A stretch of DNA of 64,000 nucleotides from an uncultured Candidatus Rokubacteria bacterium (GCA_963826115.1 CAWGVS010000012.1:128001-192000); one strand, 5' to 3'; positions 24,296 to 36,400 are shown, counted from the first letter of the stretch. The notes: generated by a model from the letters alone, not told the origin. A program made the numbers and translations.

Positions 24296-25156
24296 TCAGG
24301 GACGCGAGGTGGCGAGGGCGCCGGCCAGGCGCCCGAATTCCTCGAGCGACAGGGTCTCGGCCCGCCGCCCGCCGGCGATCCCGGCCTCGGCCAGCGCGGC
24401 GGCCAGCCGCGCCGCGCTCCCGAGACCCCCGCCCCGGAGGGCGTTCCCGAGCGTCTTCCGGCGCTGGCCGAAGGCGGCCCGCACCACGCGCGCAAAGCCG
24501 TCCTCGTCCGCGACCTCGAGCCGGGAAACGGACCGGAACGTCACCGTCACGACGGCCGACTCGACCGCCGGCGGGGGCCGGAAGGCGGCGGGTGGCACGA
24601 CCAGGAGCTGGGAGACGTCGGCCCAGCGCCGCCAGAACACGGAGAGCGCGCCGTACTCGCGCCCGCCCGGCGACGCGGCGAGGCGCTCGGCGACCTCGCG
24701 CTGGAGCATGAGGACGGCCCGGTCGAGCGTCGCGTGCGCGTCGAGGAGGCGCTCGAGGATGGCTTTCGACACGCTGTACGGGAGGTTACCGACGACGAGG
24801 ACGTGGCCACCCGGATCGGGACGGAGCGCGCGAAGCTCCTCGTAGGGAAAGCTGCGCGCGTCCGCCTCCCGGATCTCGACGCGGCCCGCCTCGGCCCAGT
24901 GCGTCGCCGCCGCCGCGAGCCGGTCGCGGAGCGCGGGATCGATCTCGAGCGCGACGAGCCCGCCGGCGCGCGCCGCGAGGGCGCGCGTCAGCGCGCCCGG
25001 CCCGGGGCCGATCTCGCAGACTAGGTCGGCCGGGGTGGCGCCGACGGCTTCCACGATCCGGGCCGCCACGTCGGGGTCCGCCAGAAAGTGCTGACCCAGC
25101 GCGCGGCGCCGACGCCCGGTCGGTCTCGGGCGGCCGGCGCGCCCCGCGGCGCTCAC
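24296..25156 (-). CDS. rsmA: 16S rRNA m6,2A1518/1519 dimethyltransferase
   Basis: LGQHFL, EIGPGPGALT, VGNLPY, MLQREVAERL, FRPPPAVES, QRRKTL. Confidence 0.96.
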   Translation of the reverse strand: MSAAGRAGRPRPTGRRRRALGQHFLADPDVAARIVEAVGATPADLVCEIGPGPGALTRALAARAGGLVALEIDPALRDRLAAAATHWAEAGRVEIREADARSFPYEELRALRPDPGGHVLVVGNLPYSVSKAILERLLDAHATLDRAVLMLQREVAERLAASPGGREYGALSVFWRRWADVSQLLVVPPAAFRPPPAVESAVVTVTFRSVSRLEVADEDGFARVVRAAFGQRRKTLGNALRGGGLGSAARLAAALAEAGIAGGRRAETLSLEEFGRLAGALATSRP

Positions 25157-25812
25157 GAGGCGGGCTCGGCGGCGGTCCGTCGGGCCCGGTGCTCGGCGAC
25201 GAGGGCCCCGTGGACCGCGCGCACCTGGGCCTGGGTCTCTTCAGGCGTGCCGGAGTTGTCGATGACGTAGTGCGCGTGGCGCGCCTTGTCGGCGAGCGGC
25301 ATCTGGCTCGCCACGCGTCGCTCGGCCTCGGGGCGCTCGAAGCCGTCGCGCCGCACGAGCCGTTCGAGCTGGACGTCGCGCTCCGCGTACACGACGACCA
25401 GGCGGTCCACGTGCGACGCCGCGCCGACCTCGATGAGGAGCGGAATGTCGAGGACGACCAGGCCGTGGAAGCTCTCGGCCGCCCACGCGTCGAGGATCGC
25501 CTGGCGCCGCGCGTGGATCGCGGGATGGGTGATCGCCTCGAGGGCCTTCCGGCGCGCGGGATCGGCGAAGACGACGGCCCCCAGGCGCTTCCGGTCGAGC
25601 TGGCCGTCGGGCCCGAGGATCTCCCGGCCGAACGCCTCGACGATCGCCCGCCAGGCGGGCTCGCCCGGACGCACGACCTCGCGCGCGAGCACGTCGGCGT
25701 CGACGAGGCGGCACCCGAGCTCGACGAGCTGCCGGCTCACGGCGGACTTGCCCGAGGCGATCCCACCGGTGAGCCCGACGAGGAGGAAGGGGCGCGACGC
25801 CGAGGCGGTCAT
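25153..25812 (-). CDS. coaE: Dephospho-CoA kinase
   Basis: GLTGGIASGKS, DADVLAR, LEAITHP, DIPLLIE, VIDNSG. Confidence 0.96.
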   Translation of the reverse strand: MTASASRPFLLVGLTGGIASGKSAVSRQLVELGCRLVDADVLAREVVRPGEPAWRAIVEAFGREILGPDGQLDRKRLGAVVFADPARRKALEAITHPAIHARRQAILDAWAAESFHGLVVLDIPLLIEVGAASHVDRLVVVYAERDVQLERLVRRDGFERPEAERRVASQMPLADKARHAHYVIDNSGTPEETQAQVRAVHGALVAEHRARRTAAEPAS

Positions 25813-25833
25813 CTGCCGTCCGCTCGCGCGTGA

Positions 25834-26685
25834 TCAGTCAGGCAGGCGGAACTCGCCCCGCGCCACGGTCACCGCCGAGCCGCCGACCTCGACCCGCTCG
25901 ATCCGGTCGGTCGCGCCGTCGACCCGGGCGAAGAGCAGGCTCGGCCGCTGGATCTCGACGCCCTGGCGGATCTCGATCTCCTCGCCGAAGGCGATCCGGC
26001 CGTGGCGCGCGAGGTGGCACGCGAGCGGGCCCGCCGCCGAGCCGGTCGCCGGGTCCTCCTGGACGCCGGCGCCCGGCGCGAAGGCGCGCGTCTTCCAGCG
26101 CCGTCCCGCTCCGGCGAAGCAGTTCGTGGTCCCGCGCGGCAGGAGCCGCGCGAGCGCCTGGAAGTCGGGGCGGAGCGCGGCCACCTCGGCCTCGCTCTCG
26201 AGCGCCACGTAGACGTGCCGGGGCCCATTGTCGTAGAGCTCGATCGGCAGGACGGCGCGCGCCACGCCGAGGGCCCGGAGGAGCGCGGCGCTCTCCGGGA
26301 AGGGCTCGATCCGTGGCACGGGCTGGACCATCCGGCCGAAGACGATCCGGGGGCCGTCGCGCTCGATCCGGACGGGCACGGGCCCGACGCCCGTCTCGAG
26401 GACGATCTCCGGGAGCTGGAGCGGCGCGGCCAGGACGAAGGCGGATCCGAGCACCGGGTGCCCGGCGAACGGCAGCTCGTGGTCCGGCGTGAAGATCCGG
26501 ATGCGCACGTGGCCCGGGCCCCGCGCGGGGTAGCAGAAGACGGTCTCCGACAGGTGCATCTCGAGCGCGAGGCGCTGGAGGAGCGACTCCGGGATCTTGC
26601 GGGCGTCCGTGAACACGGCGAGCGGGTTCCCCTCCAGCGGGCGGTCGGTGAAGACGTCGCAGATCACGTAGCGGAAGTCGGCCAT
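25834..26685 (-). CDS. PhzF family isomerase/epimerase
   Basis: [39 protein letters not shown]. Confidence 0.92.
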
Positions 26686-26729
26686 GTCCGTCCCTCAGTC
26701 AGCATCCGTGCACCGCGCAGGACTCCGCG

Positions 26730-27788
26730 TCACCCGCTCCGGCCCGGAGGCGCGGCGCGCCGGCCGCGCGCGTCCGTCGCCTGCATGGTACCCTCCGCGC
26801 CGGCTCGCGCGAACCGGCGTCGGCCGGCGGGCGACGGCGTGGCCCGGCCGCCCACCGTCGCGGCGTAGCGCGCCTTGAAGACCTCTCGAAACGACGCCGC
26901 GGCCGGCGACAGGGCCCGGTCGCCGAGCGTGAGGATGCCGACCCGGCGCGTGACCGCATCGTCGACGAGAGGTCGCACCGAGAGGGCCCGATCGCCCCGG
27001 GGCGGGAGCGCCGAGACCGGCACGACGGCGACGCCCAGCTCCGAGCGCACGAAGCTGAAGAGCGTCCCGAACTGGTGGAGCGTGATCGCGTGGTGGAGGT
27101 GCACCCCCGCCGCCAGCGCGGCGCCGTCGACGAGGCGCCGCAAGCCCGACTCCGGCGGCATCGAGATCAGCGGCTCCCGCTCCAGGTCGACGATCGACAG
27201 GGCGCGGCGCCGGGCCAGGGCATGCCGGCGCGGCAGCACGACCACGCACCGCTCCTCGCCGAGCGGCTCGGCGACGACCGGCTCGGTCACGCCGTGGACG
27301 TTGCCGATCCCGAGGTCCGCCACCGATCGGCGCACGTCGGCGACGATGGCATCCTGCACGCCTTCCCGCAGGTACAGGTCGATCCCGGGGAACCGGCGGC
27401 GGTACGTCGCCGTGGCCGCGGGCAGGACGAGGTAGGCGAGCGACATGAGGCTCGCCACGACCACGTACCCTCGCCGCTGGTCCGCGAGGTCGCGCATGTG
27501 GCCCAGGTGGCGGTCGAGGTCGCCCAGCAGGCGCTCGGCGGTCGGCAGGAACTCGCGCCCCGCGGCGGTGAGCGTCACGACGCGCGTGCTCCGCGTGAAC
27601 AGCGTCGTGCCCAGGGACCCCTCGAGACGCTGGAGCGCCCGCGACAGGCCGGGCTGGCTCACGCCGAGAAAGGCCGCCGCCTCGACGAAGCTGCGGAACC
27701 GCGCCAGCGCGACGACCGCCCGGAGCTGCCGCGACGAGACGTCCGCCGACGCGCGCATCGCGCCCCTCCTCTCTCCGCCGCCACTCAT
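26730..27788 (-). CDS. LysR family transcriptional regulator (start 27788 or 27758)
   Basis: HTH RSFVEAAAFLGVSQPGLSRALQRLE..LG..LF.RSTR; substrate-binding domain; divergent from the 27862 operon. Confidence 0.92.
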   Translation of the reverse strand: MSGGGERRGAMRASADVSSRQLRAVVALARFRSFVEAAAFLGVSQPGLSRALQRLEGSLGTTLFTRSTRVVTLTAAGREFLPTAERLLGDLDRHLGHMRDLADQRRGYVVVASLMSLAYLVLPAATATYRRRFPGIDLYLREGVQDAIVADVRRSVADLGIGNVHGVTEPVVAEPLGEERCVVVLPRRHALARRRALSIVDLEREPLISMPPESGLRRLVDGAALAAGVHLHHAITLHQFGTLFSFVRSELGVAVVPVSALPPRGDRALSVRPLVDDAVTRRVGILTLGDRALSPAAASFREVFKARYAATVGGRATPSPAGRRRFARAGAEGTMQATDARGRRAAPPGRSG

Positions 27789-27801
27789 GCACAGTATGCA
27801 T
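27787..27801. promoter_or_regulatory. Candidate LysR recognition site (ATGCA-N5-TGCAT, T-N11-A)
   Basis: Palindrome ATGCACAGTATGCAT in the AT-rich divergent intergenic region. Confidence 0.6.
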
Positions 27802-27861
27802 CGACGAGGCGTATCAATAAACAGATTGCACCGACGGGGCGATCCCGGCGACCCTCCGGGC

Positions 27862-28947
27862 ATGGACACCCTCGTCGACCCCTCCGTCGACCTGGTCGAG
27901 TGGTACTACGCGCAGGGCTTCTCGGACGGGCTGCCGGTGGTGCCGCCGACCCCGGAGAAGATCGTCGCGATGATCAGGGCGCTCGGCGGCGAGCCCGACC
28001 TGGTCGAGTGCCGCGTCCCCCCGCGGTGGGGCGACCTGACGCGCCGCGTGCTCGCGATCAATTTGGTGATGGCCGGCTGCACGCCCGCGTACGCGCCGGT
28101 CGTGCGCGCGGCGATGCTGGCGCTCAGCGCCCCGGCCTTCAACCTGAACGGCGTGCAGGCGACGACGCACATGGCGGCGCCGCTCCTCGTCGTGAACGGG
28201 CCGATCGCGCGCGAGATCGGGATGAACGCCGGCGGCAACTGCTTCGGGTCCGGCAACCGGGCGAACGCCACGATCGGCCGCGCGATCCGGCTGATCCTCC
28301 TCAACGTGGGCGGCGGCTGGCCGGGCGAGCTCGACCAGGCCACGCTCGGCCACCCCGGCAAGTACACGTACTGCATCGCCGAGAACGAGGCGGAGAGCCC
28401 GTTCGCCCCCTACCACGTCGACAAGGGCTTCGATCCCAGCGACTCCACGGTCTTCGTGCTCGCCGCCGAGCCGCCGCACAGCGTGACGAACCACGTCGCG
28501 AACGACCCGCCGGGGATCCTCGACTCCATCGTCTCCGCGATGTCCACCATCGCCCACAACAACGCGGTGACCTCCGGTCACTGCGCGGTCGTGCTGGGCC
28601 CCGAGCACGCGCGCACCATCGCCGGGCACGGCTGGCGACGGGCGGACGTCCGCAACTACCTGTGGATGAACGCCGGCAACCGGTTCGGCGACCTCGCGTT
28701 CGAGCACCGCTACGGCAAGGTCTACAATCGCAATCTGCCGGTCTGGTACCGGCGCGAGCCCGACTCGCGGATCCCCATCGTGCCGAGCCCCGATCACATC
28801 CACCTGTTCGTCGCGGGCGGCACGGCGGGACGCTTCTCCGCCTTCATCCCCGGCTGGGGGCACATGAGCAGTCCCGTGCTCCGCGGCATCGACGGCGCGG
28901 CGCCGGTCAAGGGGCCGATCTGCGTCGACGGCGCCTGCTACCTCTGA
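27862..28947 (+). CDS. Conserved protein of unknown function with DGLPVVPPT motif (typical partner of UGSC-type proteins)
   Basis: SDGLPVVPPT, AINLVMAGC.P.Y, VVNGPIA, NRANATIGRA, TLGHPGKY, AENE; C-terminal CVDGAC. Confidence 0.8.
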   Translation: MDTLVDPSVDLVEWYYAQGFSDGLPVVPPTPEKIVAMIRALGGEPDLVECRVPPRWGDLTRRVLAINLVMAGCTPAYAPVVRAAMLALSAPAFNLNGVQATTHMAAPLLVVNGPIAREIGMNAGGNCFGSGNRANATIGRAIRLILLNVGGGWPGELDQATLGHPGKYTYCIAENEAESPFAPYHVDKGFDPSDSTVFVLAAEPPHSVTNHVANDPPGILDSIVSAMSTIAHNNAVTSGHCAVVLGPEHARTIAGHGWRRADVRNYLWMNAGNRFGDLAFEHRYGKVYNRNLPVWYRREPDSRIPIVPSPDHIHLFVAGGTAGRFSAFIPGWGHMSSPVLRGIDGAAPVKGPICVDGACYL

Positions 28948-28967
28948 CCCGACAGGAGGCTCAACCC

Positions 28968-29517
28968 ATGAACTCGACCCTCCCGGCCCACGGCGTCCCG
29001 GTCTACGATCCGCGCGGCGCCGTGACCGCGACGCCCCGCCCGATCGCGCCGCGCGCCGCGCGACTCGAGGGCCTCCGCCTCGCCGTGCTCGACAACACCA
29101 AGTGGAACGCCAATCGGCTCCTGCGGAAGGCGGCGGAGCGGCTCGCCGCCGAGCACGGGCTCGGCGCGGTGCGCTACTACCGGAAGGAGAGCTTCTCCCG
29201 GGTGGCGGCCCCGGAGCTCCTCGCCGAGATCGCCGCCGAGCAACGACCTCGTGCTCACCGCCATCGGCGACTGAGGGTCCTGCACATCGTGCTGTATGCA
29301 CGACGGCATCCGCCTGGAGACCCTGGATCGACCGACCGCGGTGGTGGTGACGACCGAGTTCCGGCGCGAGGCCGAGCTCCAGCGGGCGGCGCTGAGGATG
29401 GACGCGCTCGTGCCCGTCGTGATCCAGCACCCGCTCAGCACGCTGACCGACGCGGAGATCGACGCGCGGGCCGCGGACGCCGCGGCGCAGGCCGCGCGGA
29501 TCTGGCTCGGGCGCTAG
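28968..29517 (+). CDS. UGSC-family selenoprotein (Sec TGA at 29272-29274; one extra base near 29236-29241)
   Basis: RBS AGGAGG then MNSTLP..YDP..LEGLRLAVLDNTKWNA..KESFSRVA.PELLAEIA, then after +1 shift NDLVLTAIGD-TGA-GSCTSCCMHDGIRLE...VVIQHPL. Confidence 0.85.
29281..29308 (+). promoter_or_regulatory. Putative bacterial SECIS element
   Basis: TCGTGC (29287-29292) / GCACGA (29298-29303) perfect stem with TGTAT loop, 18 nt after TGA; lower TGC/GCA pairing. Confidence 0.7.
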
Positions 29518-29524
29518 CGCGCGG

Positions 29525-30760
29525 GTGAGGCCCGGCGTGGCGGGGATCCTCGCGGGCATCCGGGTCGTGGACCTCACGCAGTACCTGTCCGGGCCGCAGG
29601 CGACCCTGTTCCTGGCCGGGCTCGGGGCCGAGGTGATCCACGTCGACAACCCGGCGACCGGCGACGTGACCGCCGACAGCGCGCCGTACCTGGGCCCGGA
29701 GGGCGTGTCGCTCGGCCGGCGGACGCCGGACGACCTCGGCGTGCCCTACCTCAAGCGCGCCCGGGGCAAGCGGGCGGTCACGCTGAACCTGAAGCACCCC
29801 GAGGGCCCGGGGCTCCTGCTCGGGCTGGTCCGCCGGTCCGACGTCGTGGTCGAGAACTGGACCGTGGGGACGGCGGCGCGGCTCGGCGTCGACTACGCGG
29901 CCTGCCGGGCGGTGAAGCCCGACGTCGTCTACTGCTCGATCACGGGCTTCGGGCAGACCGGCCCGGAGGCCGCCGCGAAGGCGTACGACACGATGGTGCA
30001 GGCCGCGTCGGGGCTGATGAGTCTCACCGGCGATCCCGACGGGCCGCCGACGAAGGCAGGGTCGGCGATGGCCGACACCGTGGCCGGCACGTTCGCCTTC
30101 GCGGGGATCCTGGCGGCGCTGCTGCACCGGTACCGGAGCGGCGAGGGCCAGCACGTCGACGTCAGCATGGTGGACTGTCTCCTCGCCCTCGTGCTCGACG
30201 AGTCCCCCGACGTGTGGCGGATGCTCGGCCTGCCGGGGCGCCAGGGCAATCGCATCCCGCGCGTCTCCCCGTTCAACGCCTATCCGACCGCGGACGGATG
30301 GATCGCCCTCGGCTGTGCCCATGACGCCGATTGGGCGCGCCTGCTCGAGGCGATCGAGCGCGCCGACGTGAAGGGCGACGCGGACCTCGGGACACCGGCC
30401 GGACGGATCGCCAACAACGGCCGCGTCGACGCCATCGTGGCGGCCTGGGCCCGCGAGCGCCCCACCGACCAGGCGATCGCCCGCCTGCGCGCGCACGGCG
30501 TGGCCTCGAGCCCCGTCCGCGACATCGACGCGCTGAAGGCGTGGCCCCAGCTCGCGGCGCGCGGCATGCTCGAGCCGCTTCGTCACCCCACGCTCGGGCC
30601 CTCGCCGGTGGTGGTGGCGCCCGGCTTCCCGCTGAAGTTCGGCGCGACGGAGGCGGGCTACGCGACCCCGGCCCCGCTCGTCGGCCAGGACAACGACGCG
30701 ATCTGGGGCGGCCTGCTCGGTCGGGACGTCGCGGCGCTCCGGACGCGCGGCGTGATCTGA
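29525..30760 (+). CDS. CaiB/BaiF family (class III) CoA-transferase
   Basis: LAGIRVVDLTQYLSGP, RGKRAVTLNLK, DVVVEN, SITGFGQTGP, AYDTMVQAASGLM, GEGQHVDVSM. Confidence 0.92.
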   Translation: MRPGVAGILAGIRVVDLTQYLSGPQATLFLAGLGAEVIHVDNPATGDVTADSAPYLGPEGVSLGRRTPDDLGVPYLKRARGKRAVTLNLKHPEGPGLLLGLVRRSDVVVENWTVGTAARLGVDYAACRAVKPDVVYCSITGFGQTGPEAAAKAYDTMVQAASGLMSLTGDPDGPPTKAGSAMADTVAGTFAFAGILAALLHRYRSGEGQHVDVSMVDCLLALVLDESPDVWRMLGLPGRQGNRIPRVSPFNAYPTADGWIALGCAHDADWARLLEAIERADVKGDADLGTPAGRIANNGRVDAIVAAWARERPTDQAIARLRAHGVASSPVRDIDALKAWPQLAARGMLEPLRHPTLGPSPVVVAPGFPLKFGATEAGYATPAPLVGQDNDAIWGGLLGRDVAALRTRGVI

Positions 30761-30797
30761 CGGGTCGGCCCCCGGGCCGCGCCCGCGCGGGCGCCCG

Positions 30798-33407
30798 CTA
30801 GACCTCGGCCCAGTCGCGGCCGTCCTTGACGTCGACGCGGAGCGGGACCGCGAGCGGCACGACCGTCTCCATGACCTCGGGCAGGAGCTGGCGCACCGCC
30901 GCCGTCTCGTCCTCCGGCACCTCGAGGAGCAGCTCGTCGTGGACCTGGAGCACCATGCGGCTCCGGAGCCTCCGGGCCGCGAGCTCGGGCCCGAGCCGCA
31001 CCATCGCGAGCTTGATGATGTCGGAGGCCGTCCCCTGGATCGGCGCGTTGGCCGCCATGCGCTCCGCGGCGTTCCGGACGGTGGGATTGCGCGCGCCGAG
31101 CTCCGGCAGGTACCGGCGCCTCCCGAGGAGCGTCGTGACGTAGCCCTGAGCCCGGCCCTCGGCGACCACGCGGTCGATGTAGGCCCGGACGCGCGGGTGG
31201 CTCGCGAAGTAGTCGTCGATGAACTTCTGGGCCTCCGCCCGGCCGATCGACACCGCCTGGGAGAGCCCGAAGCCCGAGAGCCCGTACAGGATCCCGAAGT
31301 TGACGACCTTCGCCAGGCGGCGCATCTCGGCCGTCACCGCGTCCGCGGGCACGCCCATGATCTGCGCCGCGGTGCGCGTGTGGATGTCCTCGCCCTGCCG
31401 GAACGCCTCGACCAGCGCCGGCTCTTCCGTGAAGTGGGCGAGGATCCGCAGCTCGATCTGGGAGTAGTCCGCGGCCACGAAGCGCCAGCCCGTCTCGGGG
31501 ATGAAGGCCTGGCGGATGCGGCGGCCGAGCTCGGTCCGGATCGGGATGTTCTGGAGGTTCGGGTTCGACGACGAGAGGCGCCCGGTCGCGGCGACGAGCT
31601 GGTTGAACGACGTGTGGATCCGGCCCGTCCGCGGGTGGATCAGCGCGGGGAGCGCGTCGGCGTAGGTGCCCTTGAGCTTCGACAGCTGGCGGTACTCGAG
31701 GATCTTCCCCGGCAGCGGGTGGCCGAGCGCCAGCTCCTCCAGCACGTCCACGTCGGTCGAGTAGCCGGTCTTGGTCTTCTTGACCGGCGGGAGCTTCAGC
31801 TTCTCGAACAGCACGACGGCGAGCTGCTTCGGCGAGTTCGGGTTGACCGCCTCGCCCGCGAGCTGGTGGATGTCCCGGAGGAGCGCGTCCAGCTGCGTGT
31901 CGAGCTCCTTCGCCAGCTGGCCGAGACGATCGGGATCGGCCCGGATGCCGATCCGCTCCAGGTCGGCCAGGATCGGCACGAGCGGCACCTCGAGCGTCTC
32001 GTAGAGGCGCTCGAGCCCGTGCTCCTGGAGGAGCGGCGCCTGGAACTCGCGGAGCCGCCACACGCCCTCGGCCCGCCCCCCGGTCCACGCGGCGACCTTC
32101 TCCGGGTCCGCCTCGCCGACGGGCGCGCCGGCGAGGAGCGTCGCGAGCGCGCCCGGGACCGCCGCCGCCCCCGCCTCGGCCGCCACTTGGTCGAGCGGAT
32201 AGCCGCTTCGCCCCGAGTTGAGGAGGTAGGCGGCCACCGCCGTGTCGTCGACCGCGTCCGCCCCCAGGGCGGTCCCGGTGGCGCGCGCCCAGGCGACGAG
32301 CCCCTTGGTGTCGTGGCCCACCAGGCGGACGCCCGCGGGCACCTCGGGCGGGCCCGCGTGATAGACGGCCCCCGCCGCCGGCGTGTAGGCCGCCACGCCG
32401 TGGAACGCGAGGTCGGGCGCGCTCCCGCTGAGCACCGGCTCGACGGCGACCGTGCCGCCGGCCCGCGTCAGGAACTCGCGCCACCCCGCCCGGTCGACGA
32501 CCGGTACCGCCGTCGCCGGCAAGGTGGCGGCCCGCGCCGGGACCTGGCGGAGCAGCGTCGTGAACTCGAGCTCCGTCCACAGCGCGCGGAGGCGCTCCCA
32601 CTCCGGCTCGCGGATGCGGAAGCGCTCGAGGTCGAACTCGATGGGGAGCGCGCCCTCGAGCACGGCCAGCTGGCGCGAGAGAAAGGCCTGGTCCCGGTTC
32701 TTCGCCAGCGTCTCGCGGAGCTTCGGACCGGTGACCACCGCGAGGTTCGCGTAGAGCGCGTCGAGCCCGCCGAACTCCCGGAGGAGCTTCTGTGCCGTCA
32801 CCTCGCCCACGCCCGGTACCCCGGGGATGTTGTCGATCGAGTCCCCCATGAGCCCGAGGATGTCCGGGATGCGCGCCGGCGGGACGCCCCACTTCTCCTC
32901 GACCTTCGCCGGGTCGTAGACGACCCGCTCCCCCGTCCGGCCGAGGACCGAGAGCACGGTGACCTGCGCGTTGACCAGCTGGAGCGCGTCCTTGTCCGCC
33001 GTCACCAGCACGAGCTCGATGCCCGAATCGCGGAGGCGCTGGGCGGCGGTGGCGAGGATGTCGTCCGCCTCGTAGCCCGGCAGCTCGAGGAGCGGCAGCC
33101 CGAGCGTCTCGACCGACCGGCGCACCCACGGGATCTGCTCGACGAGGTCCTTGGGCATCCCGGGCCGCTGGAGCTTGTACGCCTCGAACTGCTGGTGGCG
33201 GATGGTCGGCCCCGGCGCGTCCCACGCGATCCCCATGTAGGTCGGCTGGTCCTCGCGGAGGAGCTTCCAGAGCATCATGGTCATCCCGAGCGTCGCGTTC
33301 GTCGGGAGGCCCCGCGACGTCGAGAGGTGGCCGATGGCGTGATAGGCGCGATAGAGGTAGGAAGGGCCGTCGACGAGGTAGAAGCGCTCGGGCGCGGCGG
33401 CGCTCAC
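30798..33407 (-). CDS. polA: DNA polymerase I
   Basis: YLVDGPSYLYRAYHA, GYEADD, GDSIDNIPGVPGVG, TGRLSSSNPNLQNIP, ADYSQIELR, LQVHDELL. Confidence 0.97.
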   Translation of the reverse strand: MSAAAPERFYLVDGPSYLYRAYHAIGHLSTSRGLPTNATLGMTMMLWKLLREDQPTYMGIAWDAPGPTIRHQQFEAYKLQRPGMPKDLVEQIPWVRRSVETLGLPLLELPGYEADDILATAAQRLRDSGIELVLVTADKDALQLVNAQVTVLSVLGRTGERVVYDPAKVEEKWGVPPARIPDILGLMGDSIDNIPGVPGVGEVTAQKLLREFGGLDALYANLAVVTGPKLRETLAKNRDQAFLSRQLAVLEGALPIEFDLERFRIREPEWERLRALWTELEFTTLLRQVPARAATLPATAVPVVDRAGWREFLTRAGGTVAVEPVLSGSAPDLAFHGVAAYTPAAGAVYHAGPPEVPAGVRLVGHDTKGLVAWARATGTALGADAVDDTAVAAYLLNSGRSGYPLDQVAAEAGAAAVPGALATLLAGAPVGEADPEKVAAWTGGRAEGVWRLREFQAPLLQEHGLERLYETLEVPLVPILADLERIGIRADPDRLGQLAKELDTQLDALLRDIHQLAGEAVNPNSPKQLAVVLFEKLKLPPVKKTKTGYSTDVDVLEELALGHPLPGKILEYRQLSKLKGTYADALPALIHPRTGRIHTSFNQLVAATGRLSSSNPNLQNIPIRTELGRRIRQAFIPETGWRFVAADYSQIELRILAHFTEEPALVEAFRQGEDIHTRTAAQIMGVPADAVTAEMRRLAKVVNFGILYGLSGFGLSQAVSIGRAEAQKFIDDYFASHPRVRAYIDRVVAEGRAQGYVTTLLGRRRYLPELGARNPTVRNAAERMAANAPIQGTASDIIKLAMVRLGPELAARRLRSRMVLQVHDELLLEVPEDETAAVRQLLPEVMETVVPLAVPLRVDVKDGRDWAEV

Positions 33408-36400
33408 GGTGTCACTCCGCCGGTCTCCCCGGCTCCCATCACCCGAAAATACTCCCCGCGCACGAACTCCGCCACCGCGCGGTGGCGAAGGAGGAGCGCC
33501 CGGCCGCTCTCGAGCCCGGCCTCGCGCGCGAGCCGTGCCAGCACGTGGCCCGTCGTCGGAAGACAGTCCGGCGGCCGCGTCTGGGCGAGGCGCAGGGACC
33601 GGAGGAGCCGCCGCAGGAACTGGTGGGCGTCCAGGAGCTGGCCGGCCGTGTCCGCCGGCAGGAGGCCCTGCGCGCCGAGCGCGGCGAGCGCGCGCCGCGT
33701 CGACGGGGAGCGGAGCGCGCCGCGGCGGCCACCGTGGGCGAGCTGCAGGACCTGGACGAGGAACTCCACGTCGACCAGGCCGCCGGCGCCGAACTTCAGA
33801 TGGATGCGCCCGGGCCCCTCGCGGCCGAGCTCCTTCTCCATCCGGGTCCGCACGTGGCGGATCTCCGCGCGCTCCGCGTCCGAGAGCCCGGGGCCGAAGA
33901 CGCGGGCTCGCCGGAGGGCGACGAACCGCCGCGCGAGCGCGGCGTCGCCGAGGATGGGGCGGGCGCGCACGAGCGCCTGGCGCTCCCAGAGCGCGGCCTC
34001 GCCTCGGAGGTAGCGGTCGAGGGTCTCGAGCGAATGCGCCAGCGCGGTGGCCTTGCCCCCCTGGCGGAGCCGGAGGTCCACGCGGAACACCTGGCCCGTC
34101 CGTGTAATGGCGGTCAGGAGGGTATTGAGGCGGTCGACGATGCGATCGAAGAAGACGTGGCTCTCCGGCCCCGTCTCCCCCGGCCCGCCGTACAGCACCA
34201 CCAGGTCGAGATCGGAGCCGTAGTCGAGCTCGCGGCCGCCGAGCTTGCCCATGCCGACCACCAGCGCCGGCACCGGGCGCTCGCCGGCCACGGGCTCGCC
34301 GAGGACGGCGCGGGCCTCGGCGTACGCGACATCCCACGCGATCCCGACGCACGCCTCGGCCAGCTCCCCGAGCGCCCACGCGACCCGCGCCGGCGCCTCG
34401 CCGAGGATCAGGTCGCGCCAGGCGATCTCGAGCTCCTCCCGCTGCTTGAAGAGCCGCAGCCGGTCGGCGACGTCCGCCCCCGGGTCGGCGAAGTCCCGGA
34501 ATGCGTCCCGGAGCCGGCGCGCGGAGCGGGGCGCCGAGCCCGCTGCCGGGCCGAGCGTGTCGAGCAGCTCCGGTCGCGCGATCAGCGTCTGGGCGAGCCG
34601 CTCCGACCGCGTGAAGAACGTGAGCACGCCCCCCAGGAGCGTGGGCGTCTCGGCCAGTCGCGCGAGGTACGCGGTCCTCGGCCCCGCGGTGGCGACGAAG
34701 CGCTCCAGCGCGTCCAGGGCCGCGTCGGGGTCCGGCACCGCGCGGAGAGCATCGAGCGTCGCGGGCAGGAGCGTCCGGAGGGCGGTGCGGACGGCCGACG
34801 GCACCGCGACCAGCGCCGGCCCCTCCCAGAGGAGCCGGAGGTTCTGGCGGGCGCGCTCCGGATCCGCGAAGCCGACGGCGGCGATGGCCGCGGCGTCCCA
34901 GGGCGGCGCGTCCGGCGTCGCGCGACCCGCCGTGTCGAAGAAGCCCTCGAAGGCGGCGCGCACGGTCCGCCGCGTCCGGTCGTAGTCGAGGAGGAACGCC
35001 TCCGCGACCGCCTCCCGGTCCCCCGCGTATCCGAGGCGCCGCGCCAGCTTCGCCAGCTCGTCGGGATCCGCCGGCAGCGTGTGCGTCTGGAGCGCGTGGA
35101 GGAGCATGAGGCGATGCTCGACCGTCCGCAGGAAGACGTAGGCCCGCGCCAGCCGGCCCGACTCCTCCCACGAGAGGTATCCGCGCTCGGCGAGCCGGTG
35201 GAGGGCGCGCAGGCTGTTCCGCTCGCGGAGCCAGGGATCCTGCCCGCCGTAGAGGAGCTGGAGCGCCTGGATGTGGAACTCGATGTCGCGGATCCCGCCC
35301 ACGCCCAGCTTGACGTGGCGCTCCTGCTGACCGCGCGCGCGGAGGCGCCGGTCGATGCGGTTCTTCATCGCCCGGATCTCGCCGAGCGCTTCGCGCTCGA
35401 GCCCCGGGCGATAGACGATCTCGCGCGCGAGGTCGAGGAACGCCTGCCCCACTCGCTCGTCGCCCGCCGCCACCCGGGCCTTGATGAGCGCCTGGCGCTC
35501 CCACAAGGCGGCCCGCGCCTGGTGGTAGGCGCGGTACGCGGCGAGCGGGAGGGCGAGCGGCCCGCCGGTGCCCTCCGGGCGGAGGCGGAGGTCCACCCGG
35601 TAGACCGTGCCCTCCTCCGTCATCGCGGTGAGCGCCCCGACCAGCTGCTCGGCCAGCCGGGCGAAGTACGTGCGGCTCGAGACGACCTCCGGCCCGTCCG
35701 TCTCGCCCTCGGCGTCGTAGACGAAGCAGAGGTCGATGTCGGACGAGTAGTTGAGCTCCGCGCCCCCGTGCTTGCCGAGCGCGATCACGGCGAAGCCGGT
35801 CGGCGTGCGCTCTCCGCCCGCGCCCGCGTGTCCCGGCCGCCCGTAGCGCGCGTGGAGGGCGGGCTCCACGATCGCCCAGGCCTGCGCGAGGCAGGCGTCG
35901 GCGAGCTCCGACAGCTCCTGCGTGGTCGTGACGAGGTCGGCGTCCCCGAGGAGGTCGCGGAGGCCGATCCGGCAGAGCTCGCGGCGCTTCACCCGCCGGA
36001 GCGCGTTCAGCCGGGCCTCGTCGGTCCGGAACGGACGGCCGGCGCGCGCCACCTCCGCGTGCATGGCCTCGCGGGAGCGCGTCTGCATCACGCTCGGATC
36101 GAGGAGCCACGCGACCGTCTGCGGCGAGCGGATCAACGCGTCGCTCAGGAACTGGCTGGTCGCCGCGAGGGTGGACAGGATCGGGATCGCCTGGGGATGG
36201 GCGGCGAGCAGGCCGTAGAAGCCCCGCCGGTCCAGGGCCGCCCCCGCCAGGCGCTCGAGGTTGTTGAGCGCCATGTCGGGATCGGCGGAGGTCCCCACGT
36301 GGTGGAGGAGCCGCGGGAGCAGCGGCGCCAGCTGGTCGCGGAGATCGGGCGTCTCGGCCAGCCGCCGGAGGTTCGCCAGCGCGCCGCCGGGCTCCTGGAA

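Follow-up and report, generated by a model that had tools for sequence, protein, structure and literature searches.

The stretch of DNA analyzed here (the window) comprises 64,000 nucleotides from an uncultured Candidatus Rokubacteria bacterium (GCA_963826115.1 CAWGVS010000012.1:128001-192000), and all window coordinates refer to this whole 64-kb stretch. As detailed in Table 1, positions 27862-30760 hold a three-gene cassette that encodes a 361-aa protein with a DGLPVVPPT motif (from here on, the partner), a UGSC selenoprotein and a family III coenzyme A (CoA)-transferase. The genes are tightly packed (20 nt from the partner stop to the UGSC start, 7 nt from the UGSC stop to the CoA-transferase start), the UGSC gene has its own AGGAGG ribosome-binding site, and a LysR gene diverges from the cassette, all as a first-pass annotation, made from the sequence alone, had described. 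The reading that we favor, with a probability of roughly 0.6, is that the UGSC gene encodes selenocysteine (Sec), that its product forms a heteromer with the partner, and that this heteromer performs Sec-based redox chemistry; the complex is well supported, while the chemistry is something we infer.

Table 1. The cassette and its surroundings in window coordinates
Feature	Position	Strand	Remarks
LysR-family transcriptional regulator	26730..27758	-	PF00126 and PF03466; divergent from the operon
Palindrome ATGCACAGTATGCAT	27787..27801		in the 103-nt divergent intergenic region; fits T-N11-A
Partner protein, 361 aa, DGLPVVPPT motif	27862..28947	+	predicted large subunit
AGGAGG ribosome-binding site of the UGSC gene	28954..28959	+	8 nt before ATG 28968
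UGSC gene, N-terminal part, frame A	28968..29238	+	PF24696 positions 2-82, E 8.5e-20
Site of the single extra base	29237..29241	+	placed at 29239 (A) or 29237; shifts the gene to the +1 frame
UGSC gene, C-terminal part, frame B	29242..29517	+	PF24696 positions 83-171, E 2.4e-27
Selenocysteine insertion sequence (SECIS) hairpin	29287..29303	+	12 nt past the TGA; 6-bp stem, loop UGUAU
Family III (CaiB/BaiF/Frc-type) CoA-transferase, 411 aa	29525..30760	+	PF02515; last cassette gene

The UGSC gene lies in two reading frames. Frame A, from the ATG at 28968, reads MNSTLP...PELLAEIAAE, and the +1 frame B reads ...NDLVLTAIGD-TGA(29272-29274)-GSCTSCCMHDGIRLE...IWLGR up to a TAG stop at 29515-29517, with the Sec codon TGA 29272-29274 inside the motif D-U-G-S-C. 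Both halves exceed the 25-bit cut-off of the Pfam family PF24696 (72 bits for the first, 96.6 bits for the second). They also cover positions 2-57 and 59-144 of the NCBIfam model NF041046, scoring 33.5 and 93.7 bits where the cut-off is 125, meaning that each half is below it and only their rough sum reaches it. Joining frames A and B costs no residues, and the adjacency of the two pieces along the profile is far beyond chance. Because one profile covers the two pieces in adjoining stretches, the reconstruction of one protein that can be read through the fragmented 28968-29517 region was correct, and every element that the first-pass annotation had described there was found in place.

The gene genuinely belongs to a known, uncharacterized selenoprotein family and is an ordinary member of it. 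Like the known UGSC proteins (NF041046, PF24696), it is matched by the profile from end to end, encodes ~180 aa, has the D-U-G-S-C motif as well as the SECIS hairpin, and has Cys-form homologues; it differs in that the window copy is split by one extra base in the assembly, so that a +1 shift is needed near 29239 and the frame is not uninterrupted. The genome of the window, labeled G000 here (its relatives are G003, G014 and so on), has three UGSC genes, of which two are uninterrupted and the window copy alone is split; up to 12 matches per genome occurred in one of the relatives searched. "UGSC-containing protein" is reportedly the name used by Zhang and Gladyshev in 2007/2008. In aquatic metagenomes, few selenoprotein families are as abundant as UGSC, and reviews from 2007 to 2026 give it no function (PMC1976440, PMC2398784, PMC9312934, PMC13188914).

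Decoding of the TGA as Sec is supported by several lines of evidence. PF24696 matches were found in 41/41 related genomes, and every match listed carries exactly one TGA (the 41/41 tallies, a 24/41 tally and one of the nine partner-centered loci without UGSC, see below, come partly from an unpublished genome, G038). The TGA occupies the same column in 20/20 aligned relatives, within an invariant D-U-G-(S/A)-C, and Cys-form homologues in public protein sets read IGD-C-GSC, which is the TGA-or-Cys pattern that had been predicted for position 29272. The predicted similarity on both sides of the TGA was likewise found, PF24696 being matched by each half. As for the Sec machinery, whose presence had also been anticipated, G000 has selA and selB adjacent on contig C8, with tRNA-Sec 1.2 kb away, and selD at C5:561687-562604 (L011); all four scored above their cut-offs. 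Profile matches, aligned TGA or Cys and Sec machinery together bear out the identification of a UGSC-type selenoprotein gene. The selD gene has one in-frame TGA of its own, meaning that selenophosphate synthetase is itself a selenoprotein in G000.

The hairpin past the TGA pairs 29287-29292 with 29298-29303 around a 5-nt loop that holds GU, and would help the TGA at 29272 to be read as Sec. Across 21 UGSC genes, RNAalifold gave six pairs, two of them with compensatory changes (CG:11/GC:10; UA:15/GU:6), and the 70-nt local fold at the hairpin had a z score of -2.7. Rfam and ARAGORN returned no match on the window, and the hairpin belongs to no Rfam family at gathering score. In public gene calls the Sec codon is handled variously: one UGSC protein (P0125) carries W at the Sec position, i.e., TGA read as Trp, and many others end at the TGA or restart after it, which hides the fusions of the family in databases.

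The first-pass annotation had called the gene cryptic, and this did not hold up: the split amounts to one extra base that is absent from orthologues and close strains and that probably stems from an error in the assembly. The G003 and G014 orthologues, identified through partner proteins 93% and 91% identical, are uninterrupted UGSC genes, and the DNA alignment shows a one-base gap relative to the window at ~29235-29241. Among metagenome contigs (Logan; four runs from four studies), 5/5 bridging pieces listed lack one base, placed at 29239 in X1, X2 and X4 and at 29237 in X3; the four runs represent relatives, as no sequencing run shared more than 0.36 of the sampled words, the one RNA run sharing 0.05.

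The quality of the G000 assembly was gauged by blastn and local tblastn with 158 long frames free of stops, drawn from 400 kb of G003. Matches in G000 were found for 134/158, of which 86 were covered for at least 80% at an identity of at least 80%. Frame switches between adjoining segments at least 78% identical occur in G000 in 3/86 of these conserved genes; a looser screen (stop-free fraction <0.9) had flagged 10/86, mostly upstream non-coding extensions, and was tightened. An enolase-superfamily-like gene (by eye) at C5:53850-55067 has three switches, running through frames 2, 3, 1 and 2 in turn, while over its longest segment (222 aa) it shares 92% identity with the intact G003 protein and no other decay is seen. 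The other two genes, C5:395305-396151 and C5:400652-401815, have one switch each. Because the triple-switched gene is otherwise undecayed, residual indel errors are indicated in the G000 assembly.

We therefore consider a consensus error of the assembly the probable origin of the extra base. A recent, real, strain-specific mutation is possible, with distinctly lower probability: the strain's copy would then be a freshly inactivated pseudogene, while the two intact paralogous UGSC-partner pairs of the genome carry the function. The base is, after all, present in the assembly, its site is not a homopolymer, and the switches in 3/86 genes could likewise be true pseudogenes. Moreover, the reads of the source sample lay outside the contig comparison, so that the base could be real, and in X1 and X3 part of the depth at the site (8.1 of 10.9 and 2.6 of 4.6) derives from unlisted records whose content cannot be judged. 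The gene nevertheless shows no second lesion, with start, ribosome-binding site, TGA, SECIS and both frames intact; its hairpin at 29287-29303 is identical to the copies of both orthologues; close strains from four other studies do not have the base; the triple-switched, otherwise undecayed gene looks like a consensus error; and the eight genes around the cassette that are common with G014 are all intact.

Could the shift instead be programmed, the ribosome skipping a base at GAG-C-AAC to yield a full-length selenoprotein? The sequence is open in both frames, and CAA, the zero-frame codon that follows the site, is of a kind rare in very GC-rich genomes. However, neither a stop nor a slippery motif occurs at the site; the two orthologues, the two paralogues and the bridging contigs are all single-frame, so that the shift site is not conserved; and 0 of the ~150 UGSC matches listed in relatives is split in this way. 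With no slippery or stop context and the shift in no relative, programmed frameshifting is very unlikely, as is any cause other than error or mutation. The "cryptic" split that drew attention to this gene is also a caution, since an indel error in the assembly most likely accounts for it.

The idea of a two-component enzyme, put forward in the first-pass annotation, is well supported and is the valuable part, because the partner belongs to a large family for which neither Pfam nor NCBIfam has a profile model. The 361-aa protein has no sequence match in Pfam, NCBIfam or the PDB, in the last case even with a profile. A partner profile retrieved 7,724 cluster representatives at E<=1e-3 (2,471 of them at E<=1e-30) among 1.84 billion. 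Comparison with a protein atlas returned only unnamed clusters; the nearest named one (score 0.89) has PF24696 in 41% of its members, which is a lead only.

That the DGLPVVPPT protein is a genuine partner of UGSC, as the first-pass annotation had proposed, emerges from adjacency, natural fusions and co-folding. In G000, each of the three UGSC genes is adjoined, in either order, by a partner paralogue (45-46% identity). Among relatives, with loci defined as the gene plus 1.5 kb of flank per side, both genes were found, again in either order, in 18/19 UGSC-centered and 20/29 partner-centered loci; two loci among the exceptions are cut by contig ends. Four natural UGSC-linker-partner fusion genes occur in G036 and G021, encoding 530-560 aa with the Sec codon inside the UGSC domain. 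The best 150 partner representatives comprised 93 with the partner alone, 44 UGSC-partner (U-P) forms, four P-U forms and nine tandem forms (P-P or P-P-P). Many U-P forms start just past the Sec, and all four P-U forms stop at ...GD just before it, the product to be expected because gene callers halt at TGA. The co-folding described below adds to the support for a two-component enzyme, and the UGSC protein and the 361-aa partner most likely form a two-subunit enzyme.

Some further observations concern these domain arrangements. The nine multi-match chains (P0250, P0254, P0256, P0273, P0280, P0293 and others) include six tandem fusions of 709-741 aa and three shorter chains (258-616 aa) that may be split matches of one domain. 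P0124, the sole "longer" UGSC match, turned out to be a gene-call run-through over a frameshift and intergenic spacer and not a true fusion. Flags for one TGA in some partner paralogues, considered as Sec, were ordinary C-terminal stops read through. A 2008 paper on Global Ocean Sampling data mentions UGSC fused with a conserved domain, "Unknown_1", which may correspond to the partner family (PMC2398784); apart from this remark, the searchable literature on UGSC describes no partner.

The AlphaFold2 model of the partner had a mean predicted local distance difference test (pLDDT) of 83.4 and a predicted template-modeling score of 0.85. The UGSC model (pLDDT 90.5) shows an alpha/beta/alpha sandwich of flavodoxin-like type rather than a thioredoxin fold, with the Sec at the start of helix 103-118, directly after strand 94-100. 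Co-folding, a check that had been suggested beforehand, came out in favor of the pair: the partner and a stand-in for UGSC gave an ipSAE (interface score from predicted aligned errors) of 0.84 over three runs, whereas the three controls scored 0.00. The stand-in was a Cys-form homologue, P0130, 64% identical to the G003 orthologue and with the same DxGSCTSCC motif. A level of 0.84 was reached by 58/80 solved complexes and 2/110 mismatched pairs, counts that apply only roughly here because custom alignments were used. The runs agreed in at least 92% of contacts, with a partner pLDDT of at least 90, and since sequence relatives of the partner are absent from the PDB, the score is unlikely to reflect memorized structures.

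In the predicted interface, the UGSC side consists of the N-terminal arm 6-19 (with the conserved DPRG), the FSKD loop and residues 100-106, i.e., the Sec-equivalent Cys, C100, and its CxxC neighbors. The partner contributes residues 28-31 (the end of DGLPVVPPT), 54-70, 94-103 (NLNGVQATTH) and 144-159, segments rich in invariant columns, including P29, N67, T102, N148, G151 and G155. The model thus supports binding of the partner to UGSC, with the predicted Sec position at the interface.

G000 also encodes a PF07355 (GRDB-family) selenoprotein, P0249 (C5:1416836-1417741; L121/L122), with an in-frame TGA in the motif T-U-P-V-C. The Pfam PF07355 model stops just before the Sec of this protein, leaving the Sec domain outside. 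We built a GRDB-family profile from 17 proteins of relatives, four distant members of which read U-G-S-C-H-R-C. When the UGSC profile was aligned with it by hhalign, the probability was 91.8% (E 7.5e-7, 83 columns), Sec fell on Sec, and the downstream segments LE..G(I/V)PT and G.P...P(L/I)G were in register; with a single sequence the probability was 41%. The control alignment of the partner with the same profile gave 0.6%; a relationship between the partner and GRDB-family proteins was accordingly rejected, and base composition alone cannot explain the UGSC match. In Pfam searches, the UGSC halves and the fusion proteins P0245 and P0248 matched PF24696 only and not PF07355.

From these sequence comparisons we infer a distant relationship between UGSC and the Sec domain found in the B proteins of glycine/proline reductase, although UGSC is not itself a PF07355 member. 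Like GrdB/PrdB (glycine/sarcosine/betaine and D-proline reductase, PF07355), UGSC has its UxxC at a strand-helix junction and, by prediction, works with a second, larger substrate-binding component. In contrast to GrdB/PrdB, it does not have the PF07355 N-terminal domain, and its partner is unrelated to GrdB and gives no GrdE/PrdA signal. The hosts also appear to differ, UGSC occurring in soil and wetland bacteria with aerobic-type gene contexts and GrdB/PrdB belonging to Stickland fermenters. A full-text literature search found UGSC tied to GrdB/PrdB only in lists, and to a CoA-transferase nowhere.

On this basis the following mechanism can be proposed. The flavodoxin-like UGSC protein, with its U-x-x-C pair at the strand-helix junction, would not work alone but in a heteromer with the 361-aa protein. 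According to the predicted contacts, its DPRG arm would pack on the DGLPVVPPT and AINxVMAG elements of the partner, and the Sec/Cys pair would face the NLxGVQATTH and RLxLxNVGG motifs; as these motifs are conserved, the modeled arrangement would put the active site at the interface. UGSC would represent a Sec domain detached from, or in the fusions re-attached to, a different large subunit. Because this Sec module seems distantly related to that of the glycine/proline-reductase B proteins, the pair may be presumed to perform a redox step that depends on Sec and is most likely a reduction; its substrate would be a carboxylic acid or the CoA thioester of one. By analogy, the Sec would attack the substrate held by the large subunit, and the adduct would be resolved by the neighboring Cys. 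The enzyme would finish the reaction as a selenenyl-sulfide, to be re-reduced by a thiol system. At the window locus, the CoA-transferase might make or recycle the thioester.

Two other functions for the pair have to be weighed. It might be a metal or iron-sulfur hydro-lyase, in which Sec, Cys and partner residues ligate an interface cluster, like class I fumarate hydratase, whose substrates are dicarboxylates. In the PDB, class I fumarate hydratases match the modeled partner best (E 5e-5, Foldseek probability 0.96; weaker matches are Toblerone-fold cyclic amide hydrolases), both systems have two-subunit and fused forms (an archaeal two-subunit fumarase is 7xky), and the gene contexts are partly of dicarboxylate type, with TRAP (tripartite ATP-independent periplasmic) dicarboxylate-type binding proteins as neighbors and with MoxR-type AAA and VWA CoxE-like genes upstream of pairs in G036 and, by eye, in G021. 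However, the template-modeling (TM) score of that match is only 0.25 with a root-mean-square deviation of 17 Å, the partner sequences give no Pfam Fumerase signal, the only near-invariant partner Cys, C73, is Ala in 2/4 fusions, and no three-Cys cluster pattern is present. This makes a hydro-lyase unlikely. Still less probable is a free-standing thioredoxin-like thiol-disulfide oxidoreductase with incidental neighbors, although reviews place UGSC among thioredoxin-like redox proteins on account of its UxxC motif (PMC2398784, PMC13188914). The model has a flavodoxin-like three-layer fold, the 36 structural matches listed are all of alpha/beta type (lumazine synthase, flavodoxin-like flavin mononucleotide reductases) with no thioredoxin among them, and adjacency, fusions and co-folding all bind UGSC to the partner.

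Several observations also weigh against a Sec-dependent redox heteromer of UGSC and partner. Pairing is not universal, as 1/19 UGSC loci has no partner within 1.5 kb, and a conserved solo partner subfamily between mreB-like and cspA-like genes has no UGSC within 1.5 kb (six published loci, L057, L059, L063, L067, L068 and L070, from genomes of family f2, to which L056 of the unpublished G038 may be added). The co-folding rests on a stand-in UGSC chain and not on the window's own broken gene, and a CoA-transferase is missing beside most pairs. The similarity to the GRDB family spans only 83 columns at 24% identity, between shallow profiles (effective number of sequences ~3), and nucleophiles at flavodoxin-like strand-helix junctions can arise convergently. 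Finally, Pfam searches at E<=5 gave no pyruvoyl GrdE/PrdA signal in any of 25 partner sequences.

The loci without a pair have features of their own. The partnerless UGSC gene (L030, G018:C201) lies between permease-like and IlvD-like dehydratase genes, as named by eye. The solo partner subfamily ends in a C-terminal tail, GWLGTKNGSRP; the names of its flanking genes were likewise assigned by eye.

The identity of the third cassette gene as a class III CoA-transferase, given in the first-pass annotation, was corroborated by a full-length PF02515 match (positions 1-366 of 366, E 2.9e-110), which it shares with the known family III CoA-transferases (CaiB, BaiF, Frc, succinyl-CoA:mesaconate, succinate-glutarate). 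It differs from these in falling under every NCBIfam equivalog cut-off, the best ones by far. The partner-UGSC-CoA-transferase cassette is kept in all three genomes with an orthologue (G000, G003 and G014). Its context in G003 differs, nine other G003 genes (>=150 aa) matching nowhere in the window, and since the cassette is kept amid these different surroundings, its three genes travel together. A second paralogue group is ordered CoA-transferase-UGSC-partner in G000, G003, G014 and G019.

Beyond these groups, a CoA-transferase lies within ~6 kb in 5/20 wide loci, and four further 1.5-kb loci show one. Consequently, of the neighborhood conservation that had been expected, the part concerning the partner stands, whereas the CoA-transferase link is local to the orthologue group (3/3 genomes) and one paralogue group and is not family-wide. 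The LysR gene is the divergent neighbor in 2/3 cassette genomes but not in G003, where the divergent gene is class IV aminotransferase-like (by eye, from the first 45 residues), so that this association, too, held only in part.

Other pairs have as neighbors TRAP DctP binding proteins (two loci), a thiolase-like together with a ChsH2-like protein, an amidase, formamidase-like and cyclase-like proteins, a monooxygenase of luciferase-like type, and a MoxR-type AAA protein with a VWA CoxE-like protein. The common thread of these contexts is small organic acids together with their thioesters or amides, no one substrate being prominent. The MoxR-type AAA and VWA CoxE-like genes lie just upstream of one paralogue type, at L102:8216-11381 (G036) and L108:922-3239 (G021, where the pair was named from N-terminal sequence by eye only); such neighbors hint at assisted insertion of a cofactor or metal.

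The window locus itself is ordinary, and the UGSC family and its profile models were already known. What the family gains is a testable shape, namely an obligate-looking partner, fusions in both orders, a confidently predicted Sec-containing interface and a distant link to GrdB/PrdB. The carboxylate- and CoA-type contexts, together with the partner, point experimenters to a gene pair, to substrate classes and to reductants. A more far-reaching view, in which UGSC provides the Sec subunit for an undescribed and very large enzyme class, two-subunit or fused, with the DGLPVVPPT family as the catalytic subunit and with a Sec module that shares ancestry with GrdB/PrdB, is tentative and we regard it as rather doubtful. 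Were it true, Stickland-type Sec-dependent reduction of organic acids or CoA esters would occur in bacteria of soils and waters, and each genome would have many paralogues specific to different substrates.

Upstream of the cassette, the LysR reading frame is listed as 26730..27869, and alignment with the G014 orthologue (27767-26820, 79% identity) makes ATG 27758 the likely start. In Pfam, this frame matches both the N-terminal HTH_1 domain (PF00126) and the LysR substrate-binding domain (PF03466); its best NCBIfam matches are all far under the cut-offs. The palindrome ATGCACAGTATGCAT in the divergent intergenic region is a candidate LysR box, and it is kept in the G014 intergenic region save for one base (two sequences compared). 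A scan of 26500-31200 for sigma-70 promoters and terminators gave no signal above shuffles.

Among the genes farther out, as named by eye from their translations, a DNA polymerase I gene (30798-33500) is convergent on the CoA-transferase, and dephospho-CoA kinase-like and PhzF-like genes (25153-26685) lie downstream of LysR. For LysR and the PhzF-like gene there is synteny with G014.

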